Assembly (NCBI GenBank): GCA_964357525.1
Contig: CAYHLH010000002.1
Coordinates: forward strand, 5,287 to 69,286
DNA from: an uncultured Candidatus Saccharibacteria bacterium
GTDB lineage: Bacteria; Patescibacteriota; Minisyncoccia; UBA6257; GWB1-50-10
Length of the DNA: 64,000 nucleotides
Direction: 5' to 3'
In this document: positions 5,911-48,392 of the stretch, piece after piece
Position numbering within the stretch: the first letter of the stretch is position 1
Layout: each line of letters begins with the position of its first letter
Notes under the pieces: generated by a model
Told to the model about the DNA's origin: nothing
Seen by the model: only the letters and a program-made list of their open reading frames with translations
The model's database searches: none
Position numbers and translations under genes: made by a program

Positions 5911-7173
5911 ATGACCATGATAGAACTCAAGTCGGTCGAAAATCCTCCCGAAAAGCCGAAAGCTCCCGAGGAGGAGATCGAAGCCGCTCCCGCCGCAAAG
6001 GACGTCCCGAAGCCGCTTCGCGACATTCCAGAGGTGAAGAGCCGTTGGGAGAGATTCCGCGACAAGACGAAGGAAAAACTCGCCGCCGTATACGAGAAAA
6101 CCGGCCTTGCGGACACGGTTGACCGCGCGAAGGTTGTGGTGAACCGCGCCATGATGAAATTTCACGTGAATGATGCCGTCGTGTACACGAAAAAGCTCGG
6201 AGAGCGCAACCAGAATATAGAATTCCTGCAGAAGAAATTCGACGATTACGACTCGAGCATAAAGAAGATGAAGGAACTCGGTGTCCACGGGGACAAGGAG
6301 GTGAGCGCGGACCTCGGGAAAGAGAGGATGAAGCTCGCCGAGAAGATAGATAAGGAGAAGAAGAAGGCCGACAGGATCCAGTCGAAACTGGAGGTGAAAA
6401 ACCTCAAGAAGGAAAGGTATGAAGGACGCGTCGGCGACATCTGCGAGAAGGCGAAGAACAGGATTGACAGGCATTTGAACCCGTTCGAACAGAAGCTCGG
6501 CGAGCTGAAGCTCGAGCGTGAAAGCCTGAAATCCGAGATCGTGAGCTTCAAGGACACGCGCGGGCGCTTTACGGAAGAGATAAAAACGCTGGAAGCGGCC
6601 GCAAAGGGCGCGGTGTGGAAAACGGAGAAGATGGCGTATGAAGCGAAGATAAAGGAGATAAAGAAGACCATAGGGAAGGCGGACGCCATGGTGGAAAAGA
6701 AGATGAAAGAAAGGACGAAGATAGAGAAGGGGATCGCCGCGAACGAGAAAAACGCGAATCCGTGGCGCGACAAGCGGAATGAGTTCGCGCGGTTCACAAA
6801 GATAGAATCGCCCGACACTTCCGTCCCGAAGAAGAAAACCGAGGAGTTCGGCGCCAGAAGTGGCGGAACCGAAAAATCGGGACCCGAGGGATCGGCGGCG
6901 GAGAAGTTCGGAGAAAAAGCGGAAAAATTCGAAACCCCGAAGCTCATCGCCTTGTGGAACAAGCACTTCGGTTCGGAGCTCTCACTTACACCGCAGATAT
7001 TGGAGAAGTTGGGCGGTTTTTCCGCGAAGCGGATGAGCGCGGATTACTTTTTGAACCTTGCTGGGCTTTATGACGCGAACATTCACGGAGCGAAGGGCCC
7101 GCAGAGGAGGGAATTCGACGATAAGGCATCGATGTTCCGGAAAATAGTCGACCGGCACGCGGGAGAAATGTAA
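5911..7173 (+). CDS. Lys/Glu-rich coiled-coil hypothetical protein
   Basis: 420 aa with strongly K/E-rich heptad-like sequence. The overlapping 565-aa minus-strand ORF has L/F-rich mirror-image composition typical of a shadow ORF. Confidence 0.5.
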   Translation: MTMIELKSVENPPEKPKAPEEEIEAAPAAKDVPKPLRDIPEVKSRWERFRDKTKEKLAAVYEKTGLADTVDRAKVVVNRAMMKFHVNDAVVYTKKLGERNQNIEFLQKKFDDYDSSIKKMKELGVHGDKEVSADLGKERMKLAEKIDKEKKKADRIQSKLEVKNLKKERYEGRVGDICEKAKNRIDRHLNPFEQKLGELKLERESLKSEIVSFKDTRGRFTEEIKTLEAAAKGAVWKTEKMAYEAKIKEIKKTIGKADAMVEKKMKERTKIEKGIAANEKNANPWRDKRNEFARFTKIESPDTSVPKKKTEEFGARSGGTEKSGPEGSAAEKFGEKAEKFETPKLIALWNKHFGSELSLTPQILEKLGGFSAKRMSADYFLNLAGLYDANIHGAKGPQRREFDDKASMFRKIVDRHAGEM

Positions 7174-11619: not shown

Positions 11620-12207
11620 TTATTTTTTTGACGGTTTGAGGACCACGTCGATGAGGCCGTATTCCTTCGCCTCCGCGGCGGTAAGCCAAAAGTCGCGGTC
11701 CGTGTCCTTCTCGATCTTGGCGAGCTTCTGCCCCGTGTGCTTGGCGAGCACCTTGTTCAGGCGCTCCTTGATCTTCAAAATGTGCCGCGCGGTTATCTCG
11801 ATTTCCGTCGCCTGGCCCTCCGCGCCGCCCATCACTTGGTGGAGCAGTATCTCCGAGTTGGGAAGCGCGAAGCGCTTGCCTTTAGTGCCGGCGCAGAGGA
11901 GCACGGCGCCCATACTCGCGGCGACGCCGACGCAGATGGTGGATACCGGGGACTTGACGTGCTGCATCGTGTCATAGATGGCGAGGCCGCCCGTCACCAT
12001 CCCTCCGGGCGAGTTGATGTAGAGCTTGATGTCCTTCTTCGAATCCTCGTTGTCCAAAAAGAGGAGCTGGGCGATGACGGAGTTGGCGACCACATCGTCG
12101 ATGCCGCCTCCGAGGAATATGATGCGTTCCTTGAGGAGGCGCGAGTAGATGTCGTACGCGCGCTCTCCGTAGTTCGTTTTTTCAATGACGGTGGGTATTA
12201 GGTTCAT
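11620..12207 (-). CDS. clpP: ATP-dependent Clp protease proteolytic subunit
   Basis: Full-length ClpP family sequence ([18 protein letters not shown], catalytic Ser in GVAASMGA, His in LHQ). Confidence 0.9.
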
Positions 12208-12261
12208 TGTTTACAATGATAACGTATCATCAAAATATTTTCAAACAAATCGGAAATCCCG

Positions 12262-12285
12262 CCATTGGCGGGATTTTTCAATTCG
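12262..12285. terminator. Bidirectional terminator hairpin (AAATCCCGCC-ATTG-GCGGGATTT)
   Basis: GC stem with flanking A/T runs between the convergent clpP and 12315 genes. Confidence 0.5.
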
Positions 12286-12314
12286 TATATTCGTACCTAT
12301 TCGTGATTGGTTGA

Positions 12315-12812
12315 TTAGAATTCCACCTTCTCGATGAGGATGGCGTTGAATTGGCTCGCTTTCCTGACGTTCTCCGCGGCTGTCACCGTGACGGTCTCGC
12401 TCGTCTTGAGGTCGGAGAGCTTCAAGGTTTCGCGCGAAATGTTGCCGTTCTTGTCTATCTGCGTGGGCCGGAGGACGTACATTTCCGTGGATTGGTTCAC
12501 GACCGCCACGCGGGAGATGGTGCGCTGCGGGCTGCCGTCCGAGTGCGGAAGGTAATCCTCGGGGTCACCGATCGAAAGTTCTATCTTCGAGCCGTCTATC
12601 TTCGTGATGGTGCCGACGACGGTCCTGAGGTCCTCCGGCGGCTTCGGGAAGGTCAAGGCCACGAGGTCCTCCAACTGCTTCGTGTCCGTCGTTTGGAATC
12701 CGAGGTTCTTGCCGACTAGGTAGTAGCCGATGAGAAATCCTACGACGAGGCCGACGATGAAGAATATGACGGGAAGCTTTAGATTTTTTTGTTCCATGAT
12801 TTTGAAATGCAC
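12315..12812 (-). CDS. Hypothetical membrane-anchored protein
   Basis: N-terminal TM helix (LPVIFFIVGLVVGFLIGYYLV). Start could be Met1 or Met6. Confidence 0.5.
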   Translation of the reverse strand: MHFKIMEQKNLKLPVIFFIVGLVVGFLIGYYLVGKNLGFQTTDTKQLEDLVALTFPKPPEDLRTVVGTITKIDGSKIELSIGDPEDYLPHSDGSPQRTISRVAVVNQSTEMYVLRPTQIDKNGNISRETLKLSDLKTSETVTVTAAENVRKASQFNAILIEKVEF

Positions 12813-12897
12813 TTTCGCGACGTTTTATTCAGTATAGCATAAAAGATGCAAAAAACATGATTTCTCATACCCAAGGTCTTTTCTCCGCTTTTCTCCA

Positions 12898-12933
12898 CGC
12901 GGTCTGATTAATCAGACCGCGCCGTGGTATAAT
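12898..12933. promoter_or_regulatory. 24-bp perfect palindrome CGCGGTCTGATTAATCAGACCGCG followed by CCGTGGTATAAT (extended -10); operator-like site upstream of the frameshifted TrpR-like gene
   Basis: Perfect dyad centred on TTAA, the same centre as the E. coli trp operator CTAGTTAACTAG. Architecture identical to 1511-1546 but with a different half-site sequence. Confidence 0.5.
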
Positions 12934-12996
12934 AATCAATGATGATGTTTATTGTTGGCGTTGTTAAAACAGCAATAAAAACCTTTTCTCAAAAAC

Positions 12997-13372
12997 ATGG
13001 TTCGCGTAAATAGGACTCAATTCCCAAGCGCGTTACGCCGAGAGGCATGGCAGAAGTTCTGGAAAATCGTGAGAAGTTCCCCGTCGCCGGAGGTGCTCGC
13101 GCGAGATCTCTCGGCATTTTTCTCCCCCTCGGAAATCGCCGTGCTTGAAAAGAGGCTTGCGATATTACTTCTCCTTGAAAAGGGCGCGGCCTATCGGGAA
13201 ATCGGACGCACTATATGATGTTACAAGGGGTACGGTGAGTTTTGTTAAGCATCACTTCGTGAAAAAACCGCGCGTACACCGGAAATATTCACCACTGCCA
13301 AAAAGGGAATCTTCATATATTCCGCCACCGGGGACACTACGATCACTAAAACGCCACTTTAAAGAAAAATAA
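12997..13372 (+). pseudogene. TrpR-like (YerC/YecD) regulator paralog interrupted by a +1 frameshift
   Basis: Frame A gives MVRVNRTQF...LEKRLAILLLLEKGAAYREIGRTI then a stop. Frame +1 continues YDVTRGTVSFVKHHFVKKP..., colinear with ...REIGRMIDVSSTTINSIKHHFVKKP of the 1560 gene. This is either a 1-nt indel or a sequencing error. Confidence 0.55.
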
Positions 13373-13437
13373 ATTTTTCTCTCTAACTCCATCTTTCCCT
13401 CCGTCTTTTCTTTTTCTTCTATGTGTCCCCTCCACCA

Positions 13438-13461
13438 CGCGGTCTGATTAATCAGACCGCG
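13438..13461. promoter_or_regulatory. Second copy of the palindrome CGCGGTCTGATTAATCAGACCGCG
   Basis: Identical 24-bp dyad, 65 nt downstream of the pseudogene. Confidence 0.5.
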
Positions 13462-13630
13462 TTGGATTTCGGTTTTAACCGGTTTATTTGATTATTCCTG
13501 CATCTTACATTTGATTGTTCCCGCATCTTACAAAAGAAAGAAAAGAAATGAAACTCCGCTGGCTTGCGCCCGTGGTTTCTTTTGGCTACAAGCTCAGTTT
13601 GACCCAGGTCTTCCAATAATATGCGACACA

Positions 13631-13660
13631 AGAGGTGGTCTGATTAATCAGACCACCTCT
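13631..13660. promoter_or_regulatory. 30-bp perfect palindrome AGAGGTGGTCTGATTAATCAGACCACCTCT (variant of the GGTCTGATTAATCAGACC dyad)
   Basis: Same core as at 12898 and 13438. Outer positions changed symmetrically (GCGG to GTGG on both arms). Confidence 0.5.
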
Positions 13661-13843
13661 TGATAACCCCTTTGTGCTGGAACGGGAAGACCGGGGTAAT
13701 GCATTTACCCGCCTCGACATTGCGTCGGGGTGGTTTTTTGACATATAAAAAACCCCCGCAATTTGACATTGCAGGGGTGACGTCACCTTCCTTACATTTA
13801 GTAGAAGTGTCCCCCAAAAGGGACTTTTGTCAGGAGGTGTAAA

Positions 13844-15283
13844 CTATTTCATCAGTATCATTTTCTTCGTATCCGTAAAATCATCGGTTTTCAACCTGTA
13901 GAAGTAAACTCCGCTCGGCAAATTGACTCCGTCAAAAGAGACTTCGTAATTTCCGGCAGGCTTCATTCCGTTTACAAGAATTTCAACTTCTCTTCCGAGG
14001 ATGTCGTACACCGTAAGGTTTACAAGTCCTTTTTTAGGAACAGAAAACTGAATTTTTGTGACAGGATTGAACGGGTTCGGATAGTTCTGGGAAAGGGAGA
14101 ATTTTTCAGCAATCTCATTCTGATTCTGGATCCCCGTCATGGAGTCGGGCGCGTATTTCTTTATCCATCCGATCGACAGCGGATTTTGTCCGTTATCGAA
14201 GGATTTACCAAGAGCATAGAAATATCCTTGGTGAAATTTCACTCCCTGCACGTGGTTTAGGACATATTGCGGGTGTTGCACGATTCTCGTGCTCCACTTT
14301 CTGTGTCCATCAAGATCGAATGCGGCGAGGTACCCCGCCTTTTGCGACGTCCATTGCAGAGAATCCCTTCTGATCTGTGCTCCTATCAATATGAGATTCT
14401 GGTATTGCGATATGCTAACACCCTGAACAAAGTTCTCTTCATTCGCCGCGGAACTTCCGTTCGGAAGCCACATGGTGTCCCATATGATCGCGCCGTTTGT
14501 TCCGTTCAGTTTGCACAACCGGAACCATAATGCATAAAGCGGATTGAGCGAACCAGTCACGGTCATGCCGACATAGCAATTCCCGCTTGAATCAACATCC
14601 CCGTCCGTGGTAATTCCGATGGAATCCATGAAATCTTTTCTCCATGTTTGCTGGCGGGTCGCAAGATCGAATCGCATCACGGTGTTGCGGTAGGTGCCGT
14701 TGAAGGAAGTCGTGAAAATAGTCAGCTTGTCGCCTACCACTTTCGGATGCCTTCCGGCGGTGATGTTCGCCCCGATGGGAAAACTGCTCCGTTGGGTCCC
14801 GAACTCGTCATATATGAATATGATGTCATTCAATACATCAACCACGACGACACTGTCTCCGTAAACAGCAAGAAAAGGCGCTCCGACATATACCGAACTC
14901 GTATTGAGCAGAGCGCCCGATGAGGCGTCCCTGAACACAAGACGGTAATTATTGTTGGCCGCTTGGTGCGAGACATTCACTGTCTTGTTCTTTCCAGCAA
15001 GCACATTCAGTTGCGAATGACTGGCGATGGAGTTGTTATTGAACGTAGTGTCCAATTTCACCCACTGGGTAAGGCCGTTCACCGAATTACAGCGTATGAC
15101 ATGGGATTTGAAGTTGGTATAACCTCCGAGAAACAGCCCCCCGTTCCATACCTGCAGCTCGTTCGGATCCAGATGGTTTCCCTCGGAAGGAGGGTATTCC
15201 TGCGTCCAGACCAAAGATGGCGTCTGCGCGTTTGTTGCAAGAGCGCAACAAAAAAGCACAAGAGCGATGATTAGTGTTTTCAT
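13844..15283 (-). CDS. Secreted protein with a type IX secretion system C-terminal sorting domain (Por_Secre_tail)
   Basis: Signal peptide MKTLIIALVLFCCALATNAQ. C-terminus QNYPNPFNPVTKIQFSVPKKGLVNLTVYDILGREVEILVNG...LPSGVYFYRLKTDDFTDTKKMILMK matches the T9SS CTD consensus. Lower GC than the backbone. Confidence 0.7.
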   Translation of the reverse strand: MKTLIIALVLFCCALATNAQTPSLVWTQEYPPSEGNHLDPNELQVWNGGLFLGGYTNFKSHVIRCNSVNGLTQWVKLDTTFNNNSIASHSQLNVLAGKNKTVNVSHQAANNNYRLVFRDASSGALLNTSSVYVGAPFLAVYGDSVVVVDVLNDIIFIYDEFGTQRSSFPIGANITAGRHPKVVGDKLTIFTTSFNGTYRNTVMRFDLATRQQTWRKDFMDSIGITTDGDVDSSGNCYVGMTVTGSLNPLYALWFRLCKLNGTNGAIIWDTMWLPNGSSAANEENFVQGVSISQYQNLILIGAQIRRDSLQWTSQKAGYLAAFDLDGHRKWSTRIVQHPQYVLNHVQGVKFHQGYFYALGKSFDNGQNPLSIGWIKKYAPDSMTGIQNQNEIAEKFSLSQNYPNPFNPVTKIQFSVPKKGLVNLTVYDILGREVEILVNGMKPAGNYEVSFDGVNLPSGVYFYRLKTDDFTDTKKMILMK

Positions 15284-15507
15284 TTCAAACTCCTTTCGAG
15301 TTCCAAGCTTTTCAGCTTATTAATTTATTTAATTACTAGGTTCATTATAGCACATTACTACAAAATTTTCAAGTTATTCTGTCAATCCCTCACATAACAA
15401 GTTATATAAGGGATAAAGATAAGGTTTTAAGCGGTTTTTGGGTAGTTTTAATAATCAAAGAAACTAGGTCTTCCGGACGAGGTCGGGTTTTCTTGTTTCT
15501 CGATTTA

Positions 15508-15577
15508 CCCGGTAGTAGAACCGCGACAGGTTCTCCACCTTTGGGTAGTCGCGGTACACTACCGGGTTTGCTACAAT
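15508..15577 (+). promoter_or_regulatory. Type-A hairpin (CCCGGTAGTAGAACCGCGACAG...TAGTCGCGGTACACTACCGGG) followed by extended -10 TTTGCTACAAT
   Basis: Long inverted repeat with termini CCCGGTAGTAG / CTACTACCGGG, then the TGnTACAAT box. Its predicted transcript starts at about the ATG of the type-B element at 15585. Confidence 0.55.
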
Positions 15578-15718: not shown

Positions 15719-17179
15719 ATGAAAAATAAAAGGGAAATTGTATTTATTTTAGTCGGCGTGGCGTTCCTACTCTTCGTCCTTGTTTCCATGGGGGTGTTCC
15801 GGAATCTCGGGCAGCAGGTGGCCCAGGAGTTCTATGTGAACGCGAAGGGAGAGAAGTGGACGCTTCCGGACGGGAAGTACGAGTTCACGGTGAGCGCGAG
15901 CGGCTATCCGCGATTCCTAGGTGGAGTGATAGACCCCGTGAAAGTAAAAGTGGGAGATACGCAGACGATGACGGTCCGCGTCGCGAGCCCGGTGCCGATA
16001 GAGAGCGTCGTCGCTGAAATTCAAACGGACACAAAGACGCAGGAAATCGCGCTCACACTCGTGGAGAACAAGGCACTTTCGGGAGAGTATTTTGAAAACC
16101 AACCATACCTCATTGACGACAGCGGGGAGCTCATCATCAACAGGGCGAACTCAAGCTATGCGGAGAAGGCGATAAAGCAATTGGTCGCGAGCGCGGAGGC
16201 ACAATCCCTCGTAGAATATGTCTTTGAGGGCGAGTGGGTGGTAAACGACACGCATACGAAGCTTTACCACACGAAGTTCACGGCGACGGATGAGGACGGC
16301 AATGCCGACGAGCTCATTCTCGCGTGGTCCGACCCTGTGTGCAATTTTCTTACTGATGTTGATGGCACCGGATTACTTCAAGGAGACTGTTCAGTAACCA
16401 ACGGAGTTGAGGGTTTTGACGGGGCAAATCTTAGTTTGAATGGACATCAGGTAACTCTTTCCGGTACTTCCTCTCTCATCTGGAACGGGGATGCCGAAGG
16501 CAATCGGTCGCTCATCATAGGAGGGGGAAGCATCAGTATCGGCAACGGCACGCAGGTGAAGGAAGCGCTTCTGTGGTACACCGACCTTGATGCGGATACC
16601 TTTACGGCGGATTTGGGAACAATACACTACGAAGATTGTTCTCTGCCGCCGTGCCCGCAGAGGGTGCGCGTTAAAGATTCTCCATCGCGACCGTGGTTCA
16701 CTCCCGCCTTGGCAAACGGTCTTGACTGTCTCGACGACCCGACTATCGGGGATTTCAAGGCGGTTGACGTTCATCCCCAGCTTCCCGGGGAGGAGAAGTA
16801 TTTCGAGGATTTCTACAACGCGGGAGTGACAAACCCACAGAGTTACGACTACGACTGTTCCGGCGCGGCGACCGGAGGATGGGGAAATAATGTTCCCACC
16901 GATATAACCTCAACAACCCTCGTCTACTTCGACATAATAAGCGGCGGTGACGACCAGGGCGGCGGCAAGCAGTTATGCAATACAGGAGCGACCATAGAGG
17001 ATTTCTCTTCGTACTGCGGTACTCTCTCTCCTTCCACTTTCATACGGTGCGATGTTGGGCTCATTACCGGCGGTGGCGTGGGGAGCCCGGAGATTTTTCC
17101 TCCAGACCTTGAAAACGGATGGATGTACGGCACGTGCACCGAATGCATCGGCGTCTCGGTCGCCGGATTCTGCCACTGA
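15719..17179 (+). CDS. Secreted/membrane-anchored hypothetical protein with Cys-rich C-terminal region
   Basis: N-terminal signal anchor. C-terminus has multiple CxxC-like cysteines (CDVGLITGGGVGSPEIFPPDLENGWMYGTCTECIGVSVAGFCH). Confidence 0.55.
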   Translation: MKNKREIVFILVGVAFLLFVLVSMGVFRNLGQQVAQEFYVNAKGEKWTLPDGKYEFTVSASGYPRFLGGVIDPVKVKVGDTQTMTVRVASPVPIESVVAEIQTDTKTQEIALTLVENKALSGEYFENQPYLIDDSGELIINRANSSYAEKAIKQLVASAEAQSLVEYVFEGEWVVNDTHTKLYHTKFTATDEDGNADELILAWSDPVCNFLTDVDGTGLLQGDCSVTNGVEGFDGANLSLNGHQVTLSGTSSLIWNGDAEGNRSLIIGGGSISIGNGTQVKEALLWYTDLDADTFTADLGTIHYEDCSLPPCPQRVRVKDSPSRPWFTPALANGLDCLDDPTIGDFKAVDVHPQLPGEEKYFEDFYNAGVTNPQSYDYDCSGAATGGWGNNVPTDITSTTLVYFDIISGGDDQGGGKQLCNTGATIEDFSSYCGTLSPSTFIRCDVGLITGGGVGSPEIFPPDLENGWMYGTCTECIGVSVAGFCH

Positions 17180-19403: not shown

Positions 19404-19471
19404 CCCAGTAGTAGAACCGCGACAGCCCTTGCCGGAAAATGGTCGCAGTTCACTACTGGGTTTGCTATACT
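19404..19471 (+). promoter_or_regulatory. Type-A hairpin (CCCAGTAGTAGAACCGCGACAG...TCGCAGTTCACTACTGGG) followed by extended -10 TTTGCTATACT; a second TTTGCTATAAT box at 19498-19508 lies 8 nt before the ATG
   Basis: Inverted repeat with termini CCCAGTAGT / ACTACTGGG, read directly. Promoter boxes TGCTATACT and TGCTATAAT. Confidence 0.55.
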
Positions 19472-19516
19472 TATTACATAAGGTCAGAGATCGAAAGATT
19501 TGCTATAATAAAAGCA

Positions 19517-21430
19517 ATGAAAAATAAACTTCTCGTTTTTTCAGTCGGCGTACTTTCGCTTGCGGTGCTTTTCTCCGCAGGAGCGGTATTTGGGCAGGGA
19601 AGAAACAATACGTGGACCCCGCCCGCCCAGCAATTCCCGGCGGGGAATACAACGCCGCCGGTGGACGTGGGAGCAGAAAAACAAACGAAGGTGGGTGAGT
19701 TTACTGCAAGGGTTCTCGAATCAAGCAATAGTCTTGGTGGACCGGGTTTCATTCTTCAACCCAACACTTCCATACAATCCGGACAGAACACCTTCTTTCT
19801 TTCCACGGGAGGTTATTCCGTTCTGAATTCTTTGGGCCACATTTTCCTGAACTCCAACAGCGGGTCAATCCAAATCAACGCCCCGGCGGGGACTGCGAAC
19901 TTTTCCATCACGAAAGGACTCGTGCTCCCGAACTACACGACGACCCAACTTGGTACCGGGGTTCCGGCAGGAACTGTTACCTATAACCCTACGACCGGCG
20001 AATTATGGCTTTTCACCGGCGGAACGAATTGTAATGAACAGCAGGGGGGAATTTTGAATTCGGCTTCCGCACAGAGCGGGAGGTGCTGGGTGAAAGTCGC
20101 CACGGGCAGCCTGAATGTCAATACGTACTGGCAGCCGGTGGGTACTGGAAAGATCCATTACGACAACAATGTGGGAATCAACACGGGAACTGCTGAGCCG
20201 CGCGGGCCGTTGGACATCGTGAGCGGCGCGGACAACAAACCTGCGTACTTCTCAAGCGCCAAGGGGTTGGTGCTCCCGAATTATACGACGGCACAGTTGG
20301 GGAGCGGTGTGCCCGCTGGGACTATCACCTGGGATAACACGACAGGGAAATTGTATGTTTTAAAAACACAAACAGGAGGATCGAAAGCGCCAGGGTTGGT
20401 AGGCGAAGCGAACGCGCAGGTCGGTGGAACGTGGGTTGAGATTGGCGCGGGCGGGCAGCCCACGAACGTGTTCTGGCAAGCGGGAACGGGAGGTGCCATT
20501 CATTATCCGGGAGGCAATGTCGGTATCGGGACGAACGCTCCTGCTATCAATCTCGCCATCGGCGATACCGACACCGGTCTCAAGTGGATAAGTGATGGCA
20601 ATCTCGCGGTTTATACGAACAATGCGGAGAGGATGAGGGTTGATTCAAGCGGTAGCGTCGGCATCGGCACGAGCATGCCGACGGCGAAGCTTGACGTGGT
20701 TGGCAGCGCGAAATTGACGGGGGATGTCACGCTTGCTCCTTCGGGACAGTCGGCATATACCGTGAAAAACAGCGCGGGGACCATTGGGCTCTACAACGGC
20801 TCGAACGCGGTGAACTTCAGCGTGGGGCAGGACGGCGTCGTGCTCGTGAAGGACAGAATTGCCGCGCAGGGGACGACGCTCCAAATAGTGGGGTCATCGG
20901 GAAGCGAGAGTGTGCTCAAAGTGGGAGGTACGTATGGAGGCACGTTCCGGCCCGGCAGGGTGGAAATCGCGCATCCGAACGGTACGGACACGATATCTCT
21001 GAAGCAGGAATACGGGAAAACACTTTCTATCAGCGAGCCGGGGAATAATAAGACGCTCAAAATAAATCTTGATAACGTTTTGGCCACAAGCTGTTTCAAC
21101 GTGAACGGCGTTGATCCGCACAGATTTTTGAAAGTGGACGCGAACGGGTGGCTCGTCTGCGCCGATCTTCCCAATTCAAGTCCCACGGTGCAGATTTTCC
21201 CTGCGCCAGGTAGCAATCCGCTTGCGGGCGACAATATGATAGATCTTGGGAACAACTGGTCACTTTGTTCGCTCTCGTGGATGGAGTCTACCGGAGGTCC
21301 GGGCGGGGATCCGTTTCGTCCAACCGGCTGCGAAGTCGGAAAGAACACTGGCAATAATCAGTGGTATCTGCGGGCGATCAAGAACGGCGAATGGAACGCC
21401 CGATGTAAGGCCACGTGCGTGAGATTTTAA
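19517..21430 (+). CDS. Large secreted repeat protein (tail-fibre/adhesin-like), two copies of the motif GLVLPNYTTxQLGxGVPAGTxT...TTG(E/K)L
   Basis: Signal peptide MKNKLLVFSVGVLSLAVLFSAGAVFG. Internal near-identical repeats at about residues 130-165 and 250-285. Gly/Thr/Asn-rich. Start chosen at the ATG after the TATAAT box (track start 19439 lies inside the hairpin). Confidence 0.55.
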   Translation: MKNKLLVFSVGVLSLAVLFSAGAVFGQGRNNTWTPPAQQFPAGNTTPPVDVGAEKQTKVGEFTARVLESSNSLGGPGFILQPNTSIQSGQNTFFLSTGGYSVLNSLGHIFLNSNSGSIQINAPAGTANFSITKGLVLPNYTTTQLGTGVPAGTVTYNPTTGELWLFTGGTNCNEQQGGILNSASAQSGRCWVKVATGSLNVNTYWQPVGTGKIHYDNNVGINTGTAEPRGPLDIVSGADNKPAYFSSAKGLVLPNYTTAQLGSGVPAGTITWDNTTGKLYVLKTQTGGSKAPGLVGEANAQVGGTWVEIGAGGQPTNVFWQAGTGGAIHYPGGNVGIGTNAPAINLAIGDTDTGLKWISDGNLAVYTNNAERMRVDSSGSVGIGTSMPTAKLDVVGSAKLTGDVTLAPSGQSAYTVKNSAGTIGLYNGSNAVNFSVGQDGVVLVKDRIAAQGTTLQIVGSSGSESVLKVGGTYGGTFRPGRVEIAHPNGTDTISLKQEYGKTLSISEPGNNKTLKINLDNVLATSCFNVNGVDPHRFLKVDANGWLVCADLPNSSPTVQIFPAPGSNPLAGDNMIDLGNNWSLCSLSWMESTGGPGGDPFRPTGCEVGKNTGNNQWYLRAIKNGEWNARCKATCVRF

Positions 21431-22437: not shown

Positions 22438-24969
22438 ATGACAATAAAAAGAGTTTCTTTTCTTTCCTTTGCGCTTGTCGCGGCTATGGGGATTTTTGTT
22501 TCTTTTGCGACAGCAGCAGAGCCATTAAGGGCCCGCGTTTCCTCAATTACCGCCAATTCGGTGGTCGTTTATCTTGATGGGTGGACGCAGGCGCGGAGCG
22601 GCGAGATCTACACGCTCTACCGGAACAACGGAACGGGCGACACGCGCCTCAATGTCGGTACGGCTATGTTTTATCGCGATACCAATGTCCCGACTGGGAA
22701 GACTTACACCTACCGGCTCACGAAAAATCCTGGGGGAGATATAGGCACCGCGCAGGTGAACGCCAACATACGCCCAGGAACAATAGTGAAAGGCGTTGGA
22801 TGGAGTTCGATGGACGGCGCAGGCATAGGGTGGATAAGCGTCAATAGCACCTCGCAGGATCGGCAGGGAGGCAATCCCCATTCTTCGGTTCCCTATGGCG
22901 TCTATGCGGATGATTCCGGAGTTATGCACGGCGTCATGTGGGCGGGGCATGTGTCTGGAAGTCCCGCGACGGGGTGGGGGTGGCTCTCATTCAACCAGGA
23001 AGATCTGAAAAACTGCCCCGACAGCAATTGCAGGGCGTTCCTGAACCCTGCGACGGGGAAGATTGACGGATGGGCAAAATTCATAAACACAACAGGAGCA
23101 GCGGAGTCTTGGAGCGGATGGGTAAGTTTGCGGAACATGGATCCAAAAAATCCGTACGGACTCTGTTTCGGCGATCCGGACGGACAGCCAATCAAAGTTG
23201 ACGATGCGTTGTATTACAGCGGAAACGCGTGCAAGGCAAACGGAGGGGTGACCCACCCCGTGCTCACAGGTGCCGCATGGGCGGGTTTGAACTCCGATGA
23301 GCCAGGGGGATGGGTTCTATTTGCCTCGTCTTCTCTGGGCATCATCAATCCGACCTCGACCTTGTCGGGCGTTGCCATCAGCCCTCCGCCGCCGCACAAC
23401 GTCGCCATCCGCGACATCAAGGAGTTCTCGGCGAACAGGGCTGTTTCGTGGTTTGTGGACAACACCTACGGTGGGAATTCCCGCTACGGGACGGTGACAC
23501 CGCGCGATTCCGGAGAATACGTGCCGGTGAGCTACCTGGCGCCGATGACCCTGCCGAACCCGAGAAACACCTTCATCAGGGTGTCGACGACGGACAGCGG
23601 CACTCCAGCCGCCGACCAGGATCCCTTGACTGTCGTGCCGCCGTACTCCTTGACGTGCCTTTCCGAGGGCGAAACCTCCATTCGCCTCATAATCACGAAG
23701 AATTATTTCGACCCGAACTATTTCGGGCGCGAGCCGCACCGGATAGACCTCCGCGGCGCGACGGGAACTCCGCCCTCCGTCATCATCGCGTCGTCCACGA
23801 CGGGCGCCATCCCCTCATTCACGCACACGGGGCTGAAGAAAAAGACGAAGTATAACTATGAGCTCGCTACGACCTATAACCGCGACGGGTATGTGGTGAG
23901 GACCTCGCCCATCGTGTCCTGCGAGACGGGCGCGTCGCCAGAGCCCGTGGGGGCCGCCGTGAACCTCAACGCGTACGCGAACACACCGCAGAGCATCTGG
24001 GTGAACTGGAAGGATACTTCCCGCGCGACGACGCCGTACGAGTTCGAAATCCAGCGCATGAGGGTCACTCCCGATCGCGAGAACCTGCGGCTTGAGTTCC
24101 GCCCGACGAGCATGACGAAGGCGGAGATCACGTGGGAGAACAGGACGCTCTGGGTCCCGTACATACAGAAGTTGTGGAGGAGCGACGGCCCGAGCGGGAA
24201 GTTCGACCTTGTGTTGGGCAACGTCCCCGGGTGGCTCCGCGAAGGGCCTCCGACTTCGACCGTACGATACGCGTTCAGCGACGTGGTCGAGCCGGGGCAC
24301 CAGTATCGGTACAAGCTCGAGGTGTGTGCCTCCCTGAACCTCGAGGACGTATACTCAAGTCCCGTTCGCGGCGGGACGGCGAAGCCGCCGCTCGTGTGCG
24401 TTGAGTCCGACACGTTCAACTACCTCCATTCGTGGAGTGGCGGCGAGGGCGCCCGCGCTCCCGGAACGTTTGCCAAAGCGACGGCGTCCCTCCTTGATGT
24501 CTCACACCGCGCGCTCCGGAGCGTCTGGAATGCGGTAGCAGGGCTTTCCGAAAAGGTTTCCTCGGGATTGAGGTTCGCCGCCTCGTCCGTCTCGAAATGG
24601 TTCGGCGGCGGAGAACGGACGGTGCTCGCACAGACCGCAAATTACAATGCGTACTTCAAGACAGCGGTCATCACAAAGAACCCGTCCTACTTCGACAGTG
24701 ACCTCGTCCCCGACACGGTGTATCTTTACCGCGTGTCAATCCTTTCGGACGAACCCGTGTGGAGCAATCTCCGCGCGGCGAAAACACTCCTCGACGACCA
24801 AGGGGGTCCCACGGAGAACCGTCCGGTCTGCACCCGGAACAGCTTCTGCGACGCGAGCGTGCCGGGAGTGAAGACGGGCGACCTTTCCGAATCATCGGAA
24901 CAGCAGTGCTTCGTGAACAAGGACTGCGTGGATGTGGGGAGAAGCGACCAGGGATTCCAGGAAAGATAG
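22438..24969 (+). CDS. Large secreted protein with fibronectin type III-like repeats and a Cys-rich C-terminus
   Basis: Signal peptide. FN3-like segments (ANSVVVYLDGWTQARSGEIYTLYR...GKTYTYRLTKN; YNYELATTY...). C-terminal CTRNSFCDASVPG...CFVNKDCVD. Confidence 0.6.
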   Translation: MTIKRVSFLSFALVAAMGIFVSFATAAEPLRARVSSITANSVVVYLDGWTQARSGEIYTLYRNNGTGDTRLNVGTAMFYRDTNVPTGKTYTYRLTKNPGGDIGTAQVNANIRPGTIVKGVGWSSMDGAGIGWISVNSTSQDRQGGNPHSSVPYGVYADDSGVMHGVMWAGHVSGSPATGWGWLSFNQEDLKNCPDSNCRAFLNPATGKIDGWAKFINTTGAAESWSGWVSLRNMDPKNPYGLCFGDPDGQPIKVDDALYYSGNACKANGGVTHPVLTGAAWAGLNSDEPGGWVLFASSSLGIINPTSTLSGVAISPPPPHNVAIRDIKEFSANRAVSWFVDNTYGGNSRYGTVTPRDSGEYVPVSYLAPMTLPNPRNTFIRVSTTDSGTPAADQDPLTVVPPYSLTCLSEGETSIRLIITKNYFDPNYFGREPHRIDLRGATGTPPSVIIASSTTGAIPSFTHTGLKKKTKYNYELATTYNRDGYVVRTSPIVSCETGASPEPVGAAVNLNAYANTPQSIWVNWKDTSRATTPYEFEIQRMRVTPDRENLRLEFRPTSMTKAEITWENRTLWVPYIQKLWRSDGPSGKFDLVLGNVPGWLREGPPTSTVRYAFSDVVEPGHQYRYKLEVCASLNLEDVYSSPVRGGTAKPPLVCVESDTFNYLHSWSGGEGARAPGTFAKATASLLDVSHRALRSVWNAVAGLSEKVSSGLRFAASSVSKWFGGGERTVLAQTANYNAYFKTAVITKNPSYFDSDLVPDTVYLYRVSILSDEPVWSNLRAAKTLLDDQGGPTENRPVCTRNSFCDASVPGVKTGDLSESSEQQCFVNKDCVDVGRSDQGFQER

Positions 24970-40822: not shown

Positions 40823-41515
40823 ATGCCGGTTTTTAAATCCGTTAATAAAGACTTCTTTAAGAAATGGTGTCCGGAAATGGCCTACGTGCTCGGATTTTTC
40901 GCGGCTGACGGTTATATTACTGTGAACAAGCGCGGTGGACAGTTTTTAGGAATTCAGATTACCGATAAGGATCTTCTTGAAAATATTAAAAAAGCGCTGA
41001 GTTCGGAGCATAAGATAGGGAAACGTGCTCGTGGAGGAAATGAACAACCAACATATCGTCTTCAAGTTGGGAGCATTGAGATGTGCGACGATTTACGCCG
41101 TCTCGGTTTTTGCGAGAAAAAAGTAAGACGTTTAACGATGCCAAATATTCCCAGAAAATATCTTTCTGATTTTGTTCGCGGTTATTTTGATGGCGATGGA
41201 AATGTATGGGTGGGATTTGTGAATAAAAAGAGAAAAAATCCGGTGTTAACCATTGTAACGATGTTCACTTCTTGTTCGACTGAATTTTTACGCATTTTGT
41301 GGGGAAAGCTTCGAGTGGAGGGGGTTTCCGGCGGTTCTATCTATAATGCAAAGGGTAATTATTCTCGTTTACAATTTGGAGCGAGAGATTCTTTGAAATT
41401 ACAAGAATTTATGTATAATCAGAATTGTCTTAAAAATGGACTGTTTCTCGAGAGAAAGAAAAAAATTTTCAAGAGATACAATGCGTTAAAAAAGAGACAT
41501 GCGGTCGTGGTGTAG
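40823..41515 (+). CDS. Free-standing LAGLIDADG homing endonuclease (two-motif, single-chain type)
   Basis: Two LAGLIDADG motifs: LGFFAADGYI and RGYFDGDGNV. AT-rich. Three TATAAT boxes upstream. The 3' end overlaps tRNA-Asp by 15 nt. Confidence 0.75.
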   Translation: MPVFKSVNKDFFKKWCPEMAYVLGFFAADGYITVNKRGGQFLGIQITDKDLLENIKKALSSEHKIGKRARGGNEQPTYRLQVGSIEMCDDLRRLGFCEKKVRRLTMPNIPRKYLSDFVRGYFDGDGNVWVGFVNKKRKNPVLTIVTMFTSCSTEFLRILWGKLRVEGVSGGSIYNAKGNYSRLQFGARDSLKLQEFMYNQNCLKNGLFLERKKKIFKRYNALKKRHAVVV

Positions 41516-41575
41516 CCTGGTTAACATACCTCCCTGTCACGGAGGGGATCGTGGGTTCAAATCCCATCGGCCGCG
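41501..41575 (+). tRNA. tRNA-Asp (GTC)
   Basis: Acceptor GCGGTCG/CGGCCGC, anticodon stem CCTCC/GGAGG with loop CTGTCAC, T-arm GTGGGTTCAAATCCCAT. Confidence 0.8.
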
Positions 41576-41605
41576 CAAAAAAAAACGCCAAATGGCGTTT
41601 TTTGT
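41575..41605. terminator. Bidirectional terminator (CAAAAAAAAACGCC-AAAT-GGCGTTTTTTG)
   Basis: GC stem flanked by A and T tracts, directly after tRNA-Asp. Confidence 0.55.
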
Positions 41606-44114: not shown

Positions 44115-44192
44115 GAAAAACTTATTTTCCGCAAAACGAACTCTCTTAAGGGTTCGTTTTGCGTTTTTCCGGCTCTCGTATATACTAGCCCG

Positions 44193-44264
44193 TGCGGGGA
44201 GGAGTAACGGTTGCTCGTCAGGCTCATAACCTGAAGGTAGTGGGTCCAATTCCCACCCCCGCAA
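44193..44264 (+). tRNA. tRNA with CAT anticodon (Met or Ile2); 5' boundary uncertain by 1 nt
   Basis: Anticodon stem TCAGG/CCTGA with loop CTCATAA, T-arm GTGGGTCCAATTCCCAC, acceptor TGCGGGG/CCCCGCA. Confidence 0.65.
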
Positions 44265-44276
44265 CACAGAACGAAC

Positions 44277-45434
44277 ATGAAGCTTTACGAAAATCCAAAT
44301 CCGCTGAAAGTTACAATTCCCTCGGACGAGGAATTGAAGCTTAAGGTCGAACTGGAGAAGAAAAGCGACTCGGACAGCGCGCGCCTGCGCCGTTTTTTGT
44401 CTCTTCCGGATCTTTCGCGGACGCCGGGAAACCCAATCAGCGAGCTTGTGGAGCGTATTTTCCATATTGAGGAGCTTTCCAACTTCGACAGCGTGACCTC
44501 ACCGGAAATAAACCGCGCGGACGTTTCCTTTGATCTTTTCAATTTCCCGCAAGATCACCCCGCGCGGAGGGGGTCGGACACGTATTTCGTGGACGATAAA
44601 AACATTCTTCGTACGCACACGACCATAATGTGGTATTACTACCTCGGTCTTCCGGAAGTTAAGGAAAAGATGAGCCGGAGGGAGCATTTGGGGCTTCTTT
44701 CGCACGGAAAGGTGTACAGGAAGGACGAAATAGACCGATTCCACCTGAACGTGTTCCACCAGATGGACAGTCTTTATTTGGTTCCCAACGAAGAAAAAAC
44801 GCTTACGGAGGACGACTTGAAAGGCGTTTTGACGAAAATTGCGGAAGCGGTGTTCGGAAAAGACACCCAATGCCGATTCAATCTTGACCAATTCCCGTAC
44901 ACGGACCCGTCAATAGAAATGGAAGTGGAAAGGAACGGGAAATGGGTGGAGGTCCTTGGCGGAGGAATGGCGCGCCAGGTTGTCCTCAAAAACCTAGGCG
45001 TAGAGGGTTATAACGGCTGGGCGTTCGGGTTCGGCCTGGAGCGCCTCGCGGTTGTTTCCATGGAGCTTCCCGACATACGCCTTCTCCGCTCCGAAGACCC
45101 GCGCGTGAAGCGGCAGCTGGTGCTCGGAACCCCGTTCAAGGAGGTGAGCAAGTATCCGCCGGTTACACGCGACATCTCATTCGTGGTAAAGAACGACTTC
45201 GAGCCGAACGGCTATTTCGATCTCATCCGCGACATCGGCGGAGACCTTGTTGAGGAAGTCCGGCTCTTGGACAAATACGAAGATGCGAAAAAATTCGGAG
45301 AAGGAAAAATAAGTTACACGTACCGCGTTGTATACCGTTCCGGCGACAGAACGCTCACGTCGGAAGAGGTGGACGTATTACAGAAAAAACTATACGACGA
45401 GACCGCAAAACAATTTCGGGCAGAGCTGAGATAG
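44277..45434 (+). CDS. pheS: Phenylalanine--tRNA ligase alpha-type catalytic chain fused to a C-terminal FDX-ACB anticodon-binding domain (single-chain, mitochondrial-like architecture)
   Basis: Class II motifs (FPQDHPARRGSDTYF; FPYTDPSIEMEV; GWAFGFGLERLAVV). The last ~100 aa (KYPPVTRDISFVVKNDF...YRVVYRSGDRTLTSEEV) match the FDX-ACB fold normally found at the C-terminus of PheT. No pheT adjacent. Confidence 0.8.
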   Translation: MKLYENPNPLKVTIPSDEELKLKVELEKKSDSDSARLRRFLSLPDLSRTPGNPISELVERIFHIEELSNFDSVTSPEINRADVSFDLFNFPQDHPARRGSDTYFVDDKNILRTHTTIMWYYYLGLPEVKEKMSRREHLGLLSHGKVYRKDEIDRFHLNVFHQMDSLYLVPNEEKTLTEDDLKGVLTKIAEAVFGKDTQCRFNLDQFPYTDPSIEMEVERNGKWVEVLGGGMARQVVLKNLGVEGYNGWAFGFGLERLAVVSMELPDIRLLRSEDPRVKRQLVLGTPFKEVSKYPPVTRDISFVVKNDFEPNGYFDLIRDIGGDLVEEVRLLDKYEDAKKFGEGKISYTYRVVYRSGDRTLTSEEVDVLQKKLYDETAKQFRAELR

Positions 45435-45472: not shown

Positions 45473-45544
45473 GCCCCCATAGCTCAATGGATAGAGCAGC
45501 GCTCTTCTAAGGCGTTGATCTGGGTTCGACTCCTAGTGGGGGCG
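45473..45544 (+). tRNA. tRNA-Arg (TCT)
   Basis: GCCCCCATAGCTCAATGGATAGAGCAGCGCTCTTCTAAGGCGTTG...CTGGGTTCGACTCCTAGTGGGGGCG. Anticodon loop CTTCTAA. Confidence 0.8.
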
Positions 45545-45692
45545 CAAATTTTTGACGATAGTGTTTTTTTGTCTATACTGAAAAAGTTCGCCACAGTGAC
45601 GAAGTTGCCGCGGTGGCGTCCCGCCTTGGCGGGACTTCCCACGTCGGCGTTCGGGATTAATAATAACGAGGGTTCTTATCCATCCCTCACTT

Positions 45693-45764
45693 GCCGCGGT
45701 AGCTCAGTGGTGGAGCGCTGCCCTGAAGAGGCAGGCGTCGGGTGTTCGATTCACCCCCGCGGCA
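45693..45764 (+). tRNA. tRNA-Phe (GAA)
   Basis: GCCGCGGTAGCTCAGTGGTGGAGCGCTGCCCTGAAGAGGCAG...GGGTGTTCGATTCACCCCCGCGGCA. Anticodon loop CTGAAGA. Confidence 0.8.
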
Positions 45765-45780
45765 CAAAGACAAAAAATTA

Positions 45781-47175: not shown

Positions 47176-47991
47176 TTGGAGGTTAGAACTTTTGCTGATA
47201 AGATAAGGATAATGGCAAAGAAGAAATTCCTTTTTTGGAGGAAAACATCAGGGAATTTGGTTGAAGATAATTTCTCTGATAAACCGGAATATCACGCATT
47301 TTTTGCGCGATGCAACAAAGAGTTTGAATTTCGCATCGCCAATGACCCAGAGGCATATCTTGGAAACGGGGTCTTTAAAAATGTTTTTTCCTACAGTAAT
47401 TGGAAATTCATCCACGCAGAGGAAACCTTCAAGCCGGATGTAGTGTACCAACGGAAGAAACTTACAGAAGAATCCTTTGATAAGGGTGTTCCTATAATCA
47501 ACACACCCGAATTCAAGAAATGGAGCCCTGATAAGCTGGGTCAATATGAATTGCTCAAAGAATATATGCCGAGGACGTTCCTTATTGAAAAGGAGCAGGA
47601 TTTAGACGCGCGATTGGCGGAGATTTCCACCCCAAAAGCGGTACTCAAACCAAGAAGAGGGGAAAAAGGGGAGAATGTGGTTATTTTTGAAAAAAGCGCG
47701 GTCCCTCGGTTGAATAACGAGATTTTAGAGAAAAGAGGCTATGTGTTACAGGAATATGCAGATACCAATGTTTCGGTTCCGAATGTTGTGGAAGGCGTTC
47801 ACGACATCAAGCTGATCACCATTGGCGACAAGGTCTTTGCCAATTTGAGGACCCCTGAAATAAATAAGGATTATTGCACCTTGGTTCTCACCCCGATACC
47901 ATCTCCGTCTGCGGCTACGAGCTACGGGGCAGGCTTCCTCTACGACGGCACCCAGCATCAGTTTTTAGGAGAATCCGTAATGAAAATTTGA
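47176..47991 (+). CDS. ATP-grasp domain protein (RimK/glutathione-synthetase-like), possibly 3'-truncated at a GC-rich junction
   Basis: ATP-grasp motifs (AVLKPRRGEKGENVVIF; YVLQEYAD; DIKLITIGDKVFA). AT-rich up to about 47860, then an abrupt GC-rich tail (…PIPSPSAATSYGAGFLYDGTQHQ) that coincides with the GC-rich repeat ending in CTACGACGGCACC. Confidence 0.5.
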   Translation: MEVRTFADKIRIMAKKKFLFWRKTSGNLVEDNFSDKPEYHAFFARCNKEFEFRIANDPEAYLGNGVFKNVFSYSNWKFIHAEETFKPDVVYQRKKLTEESFDKGVPIINTPEFKKWSPDKLGQYELLKEYMPRTFLIEKEQDLDARLAEISTPKAVLKPRRGEKGENVVIFEKSAVPRLNNEILEKRGYVLQEYADTNVSVPNVVEGVHDIKLITIGDKVFANLRTPEINKDYCTLVLTPIPSPSAATSYGAGFLYDGTQHQFLGESVMKI

Positions 47992-48392
47992 AGGAAATTT
48001 CGGATATTTTTCACGATGACGTCCTTCTCTTTTGGATTGCTCTCGGCAACCATTTTTGCGAAGCGGTAGAGTTCTTTATTGTTTACTTTGAGCCACCTCC
48101 CGTTTCTGTGGAGGAAGAGCAATAATGCCATGATGGCAATACGCTTGTTTCCGTTCTGAAACGGATGATTTTTTATCATCATGTAAAACATCATTGCCGC
48201 TTTTCCAATGAGGCCTTTGTAGAGGTTTTTACGGTCAAACGTTTGAAAAGGGGAATCCAAACATGTTTCGAGCACATGAGGAAAACGAGAACTGAAATCG
48301 GGAATCGGTTCGCCCCATTCCATGATTTTTTTCGCCATCTCGTAGGCGGTGTATTCAACTTCCCTTACGGTGATTTTCTTGAGCGGCGTCAT
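47958..48392 (-). CDS. doc: Doc (death-on-curing) family toxin, Fic fold
   Basis: Fic/Doc motif HPFQNGNKR. 144 aa. AT-rich. Confidence 0.7.
   Translation of the reverse strand: MTPLKKITVREVEYTAYEMAKKIMEWGEPIPDFSSRFPHVLETCLDSPFQTFDRKNLYKGLIGKAAMMFYMMIKNHPFQNGNKRIAIMALLLFLHRNGRWLKVNNKELYRFAKMVAESNPKEKDVIVKNIRNFLQIFITDSPKN

Follow-up and report, generated by a model that had tools for sequence, protein, structure and literature searches.

A putative single-chain phenylalanyl-tRNA synthetase joining a PheS core to an FDX-ACB domain on a Patescibacteria contig

Phenylalanyl-tRNA synthetase (PheRS) has been described as an (αβ)2 heterotetramer in all bacteria, the monomeric form being confined to organelles (PMC11580382, PMC10810186), and classifications of the aminoacyl-tRNA synthetases list the monomer as the mitochondrial 'PheRS-M' (AARS Online, PMC11580382). 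No account of a bacterial single-chain PheRS was found in the literature searched, which included PMC11580382, Douglas et al. (PMC10810186), Meheust et al. (PMC6744442) and Mukai et al. (PMC5370408) and had most subscription journals outside its scope. A gene of this kind is reported here from a stretch of 64,000 nucleotides (the window) of contig CAYHLH010000002.1, deposited under the name of an uncultured Candidatus Saccharibacteria bacterium. It encodes, on one chain of 385 amino acids (aa), the catalytic core of PheS followed by a ferredoxin-fold anticodon-binding (FDX-ACB) domain. In ordinary bacteria the FDX-ACB domain belongs to the beta subunit, PheT. The presence of a single-chain PheRS in bacteria contradicts the textbook rule, and it is considered quite probable that the protein is a working, editing-free enzyme of mitochondrial design and most likely the sole housekeeping PheRS of its lineage, in which it would have replaced the (αβ)2 enzyme. 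The window PheRS belongs, as a typical member, to a bacterial clade which is very large, has apparently gone unremarked and shares the design of the mitochondrial enzyme.

The canonical PheRS is encoded by two genes, whereas the window contains one, without the B1, B2, B3/4, B5 and B6/7 regions of PheT. The gene and its parts are the following.

44277..45434, plus strand: single-chain PheRS gene, an open reading frame (ORF) from ATG to stop, 385 aa plus stop
44277..44429, plus strand: N-terminal extension, aa 1-51, without a PF02912 match, two short predicted helices
44430..45116, plus strand: class II PheS catalytic core, aa 52-280, Pfam tRNA-synt_2d
45117..45146, plus strand: linker or hinge, aa 281-290, between the equivalent of the PheS C-terminus and FDX-ACB
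45147..45431, plus strand: FDX-ACB ferredoxin-fold anticodon-binding domain, aa 291-385, Pfam

Both domains were recognised by Pfam search with scores far above chance. The tRNA-synt_2d match covers aa 52-280 with 187.8 bits (E 2.9e-55) and the FDX-ACB match covers aa 291-385 with 90.2 bits (E 1.2e-25), the latter segment starting at S291-KYPPVTRDISF and matching positions 1-94 of the 94 in the profile. They are the only Pfam domains in the 385 residues; the editing (B3/B4), B5 and catalytic-like domains of the beta subunit were not detected, and the match of a PheT profile hidden Markov model (HMM) to the protein was confined to HMM positions 696-796. The end of E. coli PheS (...DLRFLKQFK) aligns with ...DPRVKRQL of the window protein, a linker of 10 residues comes next, and the domain after it aligns with residues 698-795 of E. 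coli PheT; the fusion therefore joins the C-terminus of PheS to the last domain of PheT. A preliminary description of this DNA, made from the letters alone, had read the gene as a PheS core carrying about 100 residues of FDX-ACB on the same chain, and both parts of that reading are borne out by the domain matches and the alignment. An identical protein (P0001) is present in NCBI on a 72-kb contig.

The same description had noted a short N-terminal extension in place of the PheS coiled coil. This also holds: PF02912, the coiled-coil N-terminal domain of PheS, gave no match in the window PheRS, and the core begins at aa 52, whereas that of E. coli PheS begins at residue 107, some 55 residues further into the chain. 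In the AlphaFold (AF2) model, the extension of 45-51 aa is predicted to form helices at aa 17-28 and aa 32-42. Its residues D31, R36 and D45 are invariant in a set of 40 homologues with 62-85% identity to the window PheRS, and an HMM of aa 1-45 matched Paceibacteria-type representatives only. Judged from these sequences, the extension is specific to a clade of candidate phyla radiation (CPR) type and appears to stand in for the long coiled coil of PheS.

The catalytic core is homologous to that of the canonical enzyme (34% identity to residues 107-326 of E. coli PheS), and motifs 1-3 and the Phe pocket are kept. The core contains RTHTT, the motif 2 elements YRKDE...FHQMD, the Phe pocket FPYT and motif 3, GWAFGFGLER. 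Across the 40 homologues, each of the residues H114 and T116 (RTHTT), R148 (motif 2), Q162, F206, T209, A249 and R256 (motif 3) is either invariant or conserved to at least 90%. T209 and A249 align with T251 and A294 of E. coli PheS, which are known to determine the specificity for Phe, and F206 is the equivalent of E. coli F248.

The AF2 model of the window PheRS had a mean predicted local distance difference test score (pLDDT) of 94.5 and a predicted template modelling score (pTM) of 0.90. In a Foldseek search of the Protein Data Bank (PDB), it matched human mitochondrial PheRS in the closed state best (3cmq, 5mg*, 8p8x), with template modelling (TM) scores of 0.77-0.79 and a root-mean-square deviation (rmsd) of about 3 Å over 386-405 aligned columns. 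The comparison with human FARS2 that the preliminary description had called for gave a match over the whole chain of the closed form 3cmq (TM 0.77, rmsd 3.2 Å, 386 columns); the tRNA-bound open form 3tup gave TM 0.58, and bacterial PheS chains superposed on the core only. The fold, as predicted, matches that of mitochondrial PheRS including the docked anticodon-binding domain. On the conserved motifs and the model together, the protein would very probably function as a single-chain PheRS.

In the mechanism proposed, the class II core (aa 52-280) would convert Phe and ATP to Phe-AMP and would then transfer Phe onto A76 of tRNA-Phe, and the FDX-ACB domain (aa 291-385) would read the GAA anticodon. 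By analogy with human mitochondrial PheRS, the free enzyme, which we infer to be catalytically active as a monomer, would be closed, with the FDX-ACB domain resting on the core, and this domain would swing off on the hinge upon binding of the tRNA. Because there is no B3/B4 domain, no post-transfer editing of Tyr-tRNA-Phe would take place; proofreading of the mischarged tRNA would be impossible and the selectivity of the active site would have to suffice.

The described system closest to the window protein is the mitochondrial PheRS (human FARS2, yeast Msf1, structures 3cmq and 3tup, 'PheRS-M' of PMC11580382), which has the same order of PheS core and FDX-ACB domain and, like the window PheRS, is without editing, B5 and beta-scaffold domains. 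Human FARS2 was the best match by sequence among solved structures (E 7e-54, as against 2e-35 for bacterial PheS). The FDX-ACB domain of the window protein has a mean identity of 40% to mitochondrial-type domains and of 27% to the domains of seven canonical PheT proteins, and the motif DISF (RDISF) is common to it and the mitochondrial forms. The two enzymes differ in an insertion between motifs 2 and 3, which is present in the mitochondrial PheRS (seen as two matched stretches) and missing from the window PheRS, in the N-terminal extension which the latter has of its own, and in its bacterial host. The mitochondrial likeness put forward in the preliminary description is thus upheld as regards the best solved-structure match, by sequence and by fold, and is not upheld as regards membership of the family, as the protein scores below the TIGR00469 cut-off and belongs to a distinct CPR-type clade.

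Profile HMMs were built from canonical pheS and pheT of seven or eight phyla, taken from plasmid-collection records, and were run on the six-frame translation of the window and of 83 related loci (+/-10 kb), 1.27 Mb in total. Exactly one PheS-like ORF was found per locus, namely the single-chain gene, and no B1, B3/4, B5 or B6/7 region of PheT was found in the window or in the 83 loci. The PheT matches in these sequences consisted of the FDX-ACB domain of the single-chain protein itself and of a small B2-like ORF in 15 loci. Within the 64-kb window, the sole match of E. coli PheT and PheS queries (tblastn), and likewise of a profile from seven canonical PheT proteins, was the PheRS ORF, in agreement with the earlier statement that no pheT lies nearby. 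The two largest ORFs of the window are not PheT, one (790 aa) being a P-type ATPase and the other (843 aa) having no Pfam match. Taken as a claim by itself, that the single-chain enzyme would be the only PheRS of the cell is likely.

The architecture is not a one-off. More than 6,600 homologues of the window PheRS were found, the best 120 of which all consist of tRNA-synt_2d and FDX-ACB in 344-403 aa, and thousands of Patescibacteria proteins share this arrangement. At least 526 genomes, each representing a GTDB species, contain a relative (pattern-limited scan, one genome per species), and one relative is encoded in a closed genome of 923 kb (CP066690.1). The named sources comprise Lipton-, Sung-, Taylor-, Niyogi-, Giovannoni-, Kaiser-, Nomura-, Zambryski-, Wolfe-, Staskawicz-, Nealson-, Portnoy- and "Doudna"-bacteria, and further homologues are named as Paceibacterota and Minisyncoccia. 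When 1.84 billion cluster representatives were searched, the best 150 matches were almost all two-domain proteins, and they included eukaryotic mitochondrial enzymes, e.g. Msf1 of S. osmophilus, and compact forms of 345-357 aa. Canonical PheS was looked for among the same best 150 representatives and rejected, the 'catalytic-only' matches being intron-split eukaryotic genes. Taxon labels in this material are unreliable: many metagenome-assembled genomes (MAGs) with Paceibacteria-type genes (L012-L091) are titled 'uncultured Candidatus Saccharibacteria', 'Binatia' or 'bacterium'. An 'Oligoflexia' source of one homologue (P0124, MBX7144632.1) was also discarded, since its nearest relatives are all Paceibacteria and the label is probably an error of binning or naming.

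The phylogeny of the catalytic domain was examined by neighbour joining (NJ) with bootstrap on 212 columns, canonical PheS being drawn from eight phyla. In this tree, which is NJ only, includes neither an archaeal outgroup nor canonical PheS from CPR and may be subject to long-branch effects, canonical PheS stood apart from all single-chain forms and SrmL (an NCBIfam family) with 100% bootstrap, the CPR-type sequences formed a clade at 98%, and the mitochondrial and compact phage-like forms grouped at 75%. SrmL fell with four other representatives, the grouping of CPR-type forms with SrmL receiving 0% bootstrap. The tree of the FDX-ACB domain, with supports of 1-69%, gave no resolution. The catalytic-domain phylogeny which had been suggested at the outset thus sets the single-chain forms (CPR-type, mitochondrial and SrmL) apart from canonical PheS, a hint that the PheS core and FDX-ACB were fused once, in the distant past.

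The surroundings of the gene were compared with those of its relatives. The features next to it are the following.

44130..44163, plus strand: terminator-like hairpin, 15-bp stem then T run, consensus match only, 3' of the upstream 522-aa gene
44193..44265, plus strand: tRNA-Met (CAT), by ARAGORN and Rfam (56 bits)
45473..45545, plus strand: tRNA-Arg (TCT), by ARAGORN and Rfam, 38 nt 3' of the PheRS stop
45693..45765, plus strand: tRNA-Phe (GAA), by ARAGORN and Rfam, 260 nt 3' of the PheRS stop

As the preliminary description had it, the gene lies between tRNA genes and not beside pheT. Upstream is tRNA-Met and downstream are tRNA-Arg and tRNA-Phe; the infC-rpmI-rplT context, which is seen in Burkholderia, is missing as well. 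The order LigA, GatC, GatA ... PheRS ... tRNA cluster, VTT protein and RF-1-domain protein is common to relatives whose PheRS is 69% and 85% identical, and this conserved synteny argues for vertical inheritance of the window PheRS gene and not for a recent insertion. The identity of the PheRS to its orthologues in the relatives L003, L005 and L001 is 69%, 85% and 65%, that of GatA in the same genome pairs is 68%, 84% and 53%, and that of LigA is 66% and 76% in L003 and L005. Because the conservation of the PheRS equals or exceeds that of GatA and LigA, the purifying selection on it would be of housekeeping level, which fits an essential gene.

The synteny bears on the possibility that the gene is an artefact, i.e. 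an assembly chimera, a frameshifted pheS-pheT remnant, or contamination of the bin by eukaryotic (mitochondrial-type) or phage DNA. The region is rich in tRNA genes, which are often integration sites, and compact PheRS forms do occur on phage-like contigs; yet the same uninterrupted ORF of 378-390 aa is present in more than 100 independent assemblies, the closed genome included, and the clade to which it belongs is separate (98%) from the mitochondrial and phage-like forms. Around it, genes typical of CPR stand in a conserved order; the window encodes an NAD-dependent DNA ligase, GatA and a type IV pilus ATPase besides many proteins whose function is unknown, and the GC content is unremarkable. 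The artefact reading is effectively refuted.

The hairpin at 44130..44163, a candidate terminator, may mark the beginning of a tRNA-Met/PheRS unit, whose co-transcription is likely. As the PheRS start codon is only 11 nt past the end of tRNA-Met and is not preceded by a Shine-Dalgarno-like sequence, the arrangement suggests a tRNA-mRNA co-transcript in need of processing. The tRNA-Phe at 45693..45765, with the anticodon G34 A35 A36 and the discriminator A73, is the presumed substrate of the window PheRS. The order PheRS, tRNA-Arg, tRNA-Phe is also found in the closest relative, L005; adjacency of tRNA-Phe as a general trait was rejected, as none but the closest relatives (L003, L005 and L012) retain it. 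The 3' CCA is not encoded in the tRNA genes at 44193-44265, 45473-45545 and 45693-45765, the letters after A73 being ACA in tRNA-Met and CAA in tRNA-Phe.

Several observations weigh against the window protein being a housekeeping PheRS without a canonical counterpart. With reference to the NCBIfam cut-offs (TIGR00469 pheS_mito, 258.35 bits; TIGR00468 pheS, 237.45 bits; NF051887 SrmL, 300 bits), it falls below every equivalog threshold (pheS_mito 220.4, pheS 164.7 and SrmL 233.2 bits), and the top model is that of SrmL, a 'mystery ligase'. Motif 2 reads FHQMD, as against FHQ(M/L)E in canonical PheS, D164 taking the place of Glu, and the pocket reads FPY, as against the canonical FPF, with Y208 for Phe; both deviations are family-wide. 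No Shine-Dalgarno-like motif was found in the 11-nt gap before the start codon. The flanks searched make up about 2% of the genome of each relative, and the Parcubacteria MAG PMX_810_sub has, in the stored part of the PMC10936435 supplement, adjacent canonical pheT and pheS, the former of 681 aa (B3/4, CLM, B5, FDX-ACB) and the latter of 353 aa with PF02912. Proteins labelled 'Nealsonbacteria' include a canonical PheT (UniRef A0A2M7R5P9) as well as a single-chain form (P0382), and the single-chain PheRS and the canonical pair may occur together in some genomes. PheRS-beta proteins of CPR have also been mentioned by Mukai et al. (PMC5370408); the supplements of PMC12281837, PMC8672522 and PMC11188291 contained nothing on pheT, K01890 or Pfam identifiers. 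In the stored part of the annotation table of PMX_810_sub there is no single-chain gene (PMC10936435), and canonical pheST and single-chain PheRS look like alternative solutions adopted in different lineages.

SrmL (NF051887, a profile of 349 positions) has the same two-domain layout as the window PheRS and a similar size, and no paper on it was found in the literature search. When the domains were scored separately, the core alone gave 176 bits with SrmL, 166 with pheS and 139 with pheS_mito, and the FDX-ACB domain alone gave 76 bits with pheT, 73 with pheS_mito and 46 with SrmL; the TIGR00468 pheS match begins at profile position 71. A true SrmL, annotated as hypothetical, was identified on the Azotobacter chroococcum plasmid NZ_CP066311.1 (WP_198868198.1, L092:5827-6939, 514.7 bits). 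Its catalytic motifs are altered or degenerate (EPHQLD, HPYTTDG, GLAMGLGLDRL), whereas those of the window PheRS are canonical, the two catalytic domains are 29% identical, and the gene lies among PRTRC/ThiF, DUF4942, insertion sequence (IS) elements and a VapC/Phd toxin-antitoxin pair. Assignment of the window protein to SrmL itself was rejected on the score below the cut-off of 300, the canonical motifs and the housekeeping synteny.

A broader alternative is that the window gene is an accessory, non-housekeeping PheS-like paralogue of SrmL type, PheRS being supplied by canonical pheS and pheT at another place in the genome. The rank of SrmL as top NCBIfam model (233 bits), the two-domain layout and clan which it shares with all single-chain forms, and the presence of canonical pheST in at least one Parcubacteria MAG (PMX_810_sub) would be accounted for in this way. 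On the other hand, 233 bits is below the threshold of 300 and a true SrmL scores 515; the motifs of the true SrmL are degenerate and its context is one of mobile elements, as opposed to the canonical motifs and housekeeping synteny of the window gene, which is conserved like GatA and LigA; and the CPR-type clade has 98% bootstrap, the union with SrmL 0%. The MAG with pheST, which has no single-chain gene in the stored part of its annotation, fits mutual exclusivity of the two systems. An accessory paralogue is therefore considered unlikely, and a housekeeping single-chain PheRS remains the preferred reading.

In 15 of 80 related species, an ORF of 134-136 aa is found just 5' of the single-chain PheRS gene, ending 8-18 nt before its start in the loci in which the ends were read (L087, L023). 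It occurs at L087:9588-9992 and L023:9581-9991 and in L016, L029, L030, L041, L054, L059, L060, L061, L069, L075, L082, L089 and L090, and corresponds to the B2-like tRNA-binding OB fold of PheT only (PF01588; pheT_bact positions 41-151, 110 bits); the YtpR model gave 90 bits, below its cut-off of 100. More than 1,300 proteins make up the family; most bear the label 'Doudnabacteria', and the JGI name is 'PheRS beta chain'. In the lineages bearing this ORF, it looks as if the beta subunit had been taken apart. The operonic look of these 15 loci would suit an enzyme dependent on a separate tRNA-binding or PheT-derived partner, e.g. a free B2 (tRNA_bind) protein encoded elsewhere, but neither the 64-kb window nor the closest relatives L001, L003 and L005 contain a B2-like ORF, 65 of the 80 loci are without it, and mitochondrial PheRS is established to work without a partner (structure 3tup). 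Dependence of the window PheRS on such a partner is held to be very unlikely, and a self-sufficient single chain is retained.

The compact forms of 345-357 aa are encoded on large phage-like metagenomic contigs and consist of tRNA-synt_2d and FDX-ACB with 33-42% identity to the window PheRS. They differ from it in the lack of an N-terminal extension, in passing the pheS_mito cut-off (up to 308 bits), in clustering with mitochondrial sequences and in their phage-like context. On pheS_mito, the phage-like P0135 scored 308.5 bits and P0121, a relative of the window PheRS, scored 264.3 bits, both above the cut-off. Two compact PheRS of 348-354 aa lie on contigs of 160 kb and 341 kb (L007, 10001-11065; L008, 10001-11047) together with many small unknown genes, PhageMetallopep, PcfJ, ThyX, dCMP deaminase and a SNF2 helicase; no capsid or terminase was identified on these contigs. 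A scan of viral contigs gave nothing for the compact forms, and comparison with PHROGs gave helicase and PcfJ-like matches only. A full-length match of 26% identity is present in a 635-kb 'uncultured phage' (LR745206.1, 613869-614858). The compact forms may be borne by huge phages, the evidence being suggestive.

It is tempting to speculate that a single prokaryotic fusion was ancestral to the CPR-type PheRS (of Paceibacteria and Doudnabacteria), the compact phage-like forms, SrmL and the mitochondrial enzyme, that hundreds of bacterial species would live without PheRS proofreading, and that in some of them the beta subunit would have been split into a free B2 protein and a fused anticodon-binding domain. 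This scenario is put forward tentatively, as one that is possible and rather less than probable. If it were true, eukaryotes would not have invented the monomeric mitochondrial PheRS; its design would be prokaryotic, either inherited or acquired.

The window PheRS and the homologues P0025, P0046, P0050, P0087, P0100, P0363, P0374 and P0382 carry the NCBI name 'hypothetical protein' and the JGI name 'PheRS alpha chain'. Scores within the family lie on both sides of the TIGR00469 cut-off of 258, with 220 bits for the window protein and 264 for P0121, which is 62% identical to it, and this probably explains the 'hypothetical protein' names in NCBI. Owing to this annotation gap, genomes with a single-chain PheRS appear to lack PheRS, and marker sets expecting pheS and pheT would under-score them. 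If the enzyme is the sole PheRS of its hosts, a large bacterial radiation would run on a minimal, editing-free design, which would add to the picture of a pared-down translation quality control in ultrasmall symbionts, and the origin of mitochondrial PheRS would become testable against real prokaryotic relatives. On the same premise, a stand-alone bacterial PheRS of 385 aa would make a handy minimal scaffold for engineering.

Some minor features of the window and of a related genome were also recorded. A free-standing LAGLIDADG-domain ORF of 230 aa (40823-41515, plus strand) follows gatA directly and runs at its 3' end into the beginning of tRNA-Asp (41501-41576); it is absent from the syntenic relatives L003 and L005 and may be a homing-endonuclease insertion. 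Just 3' of tRNA-His, an ATP-grasp-like ORF of 271 aa with a weak YheC/D-type match (47176-47991, plus strand) and a convergent Fic/DOC-family gene (47958-48392, minus strand) overlap at the 3' end of the latter. Kinship of the ATP-grasp-like ORF with a 271-aa gene downstream of the PheRS in L001 was considered and rejected, the two being unrelated and their equal length coincidental. Four large ORFs of the window had no Pfam match at E <= 0.001, namely 22438-24969 (843 aa), 19439-21430 (663 aa), 15719-17179 (486 aa) and 5911-7173 (420 aa). In L001 (CP066690.1), the gyrB gene at 12174-15515, encoding 1,113 aa, contains an intein (PF14890, Intein_splicing).

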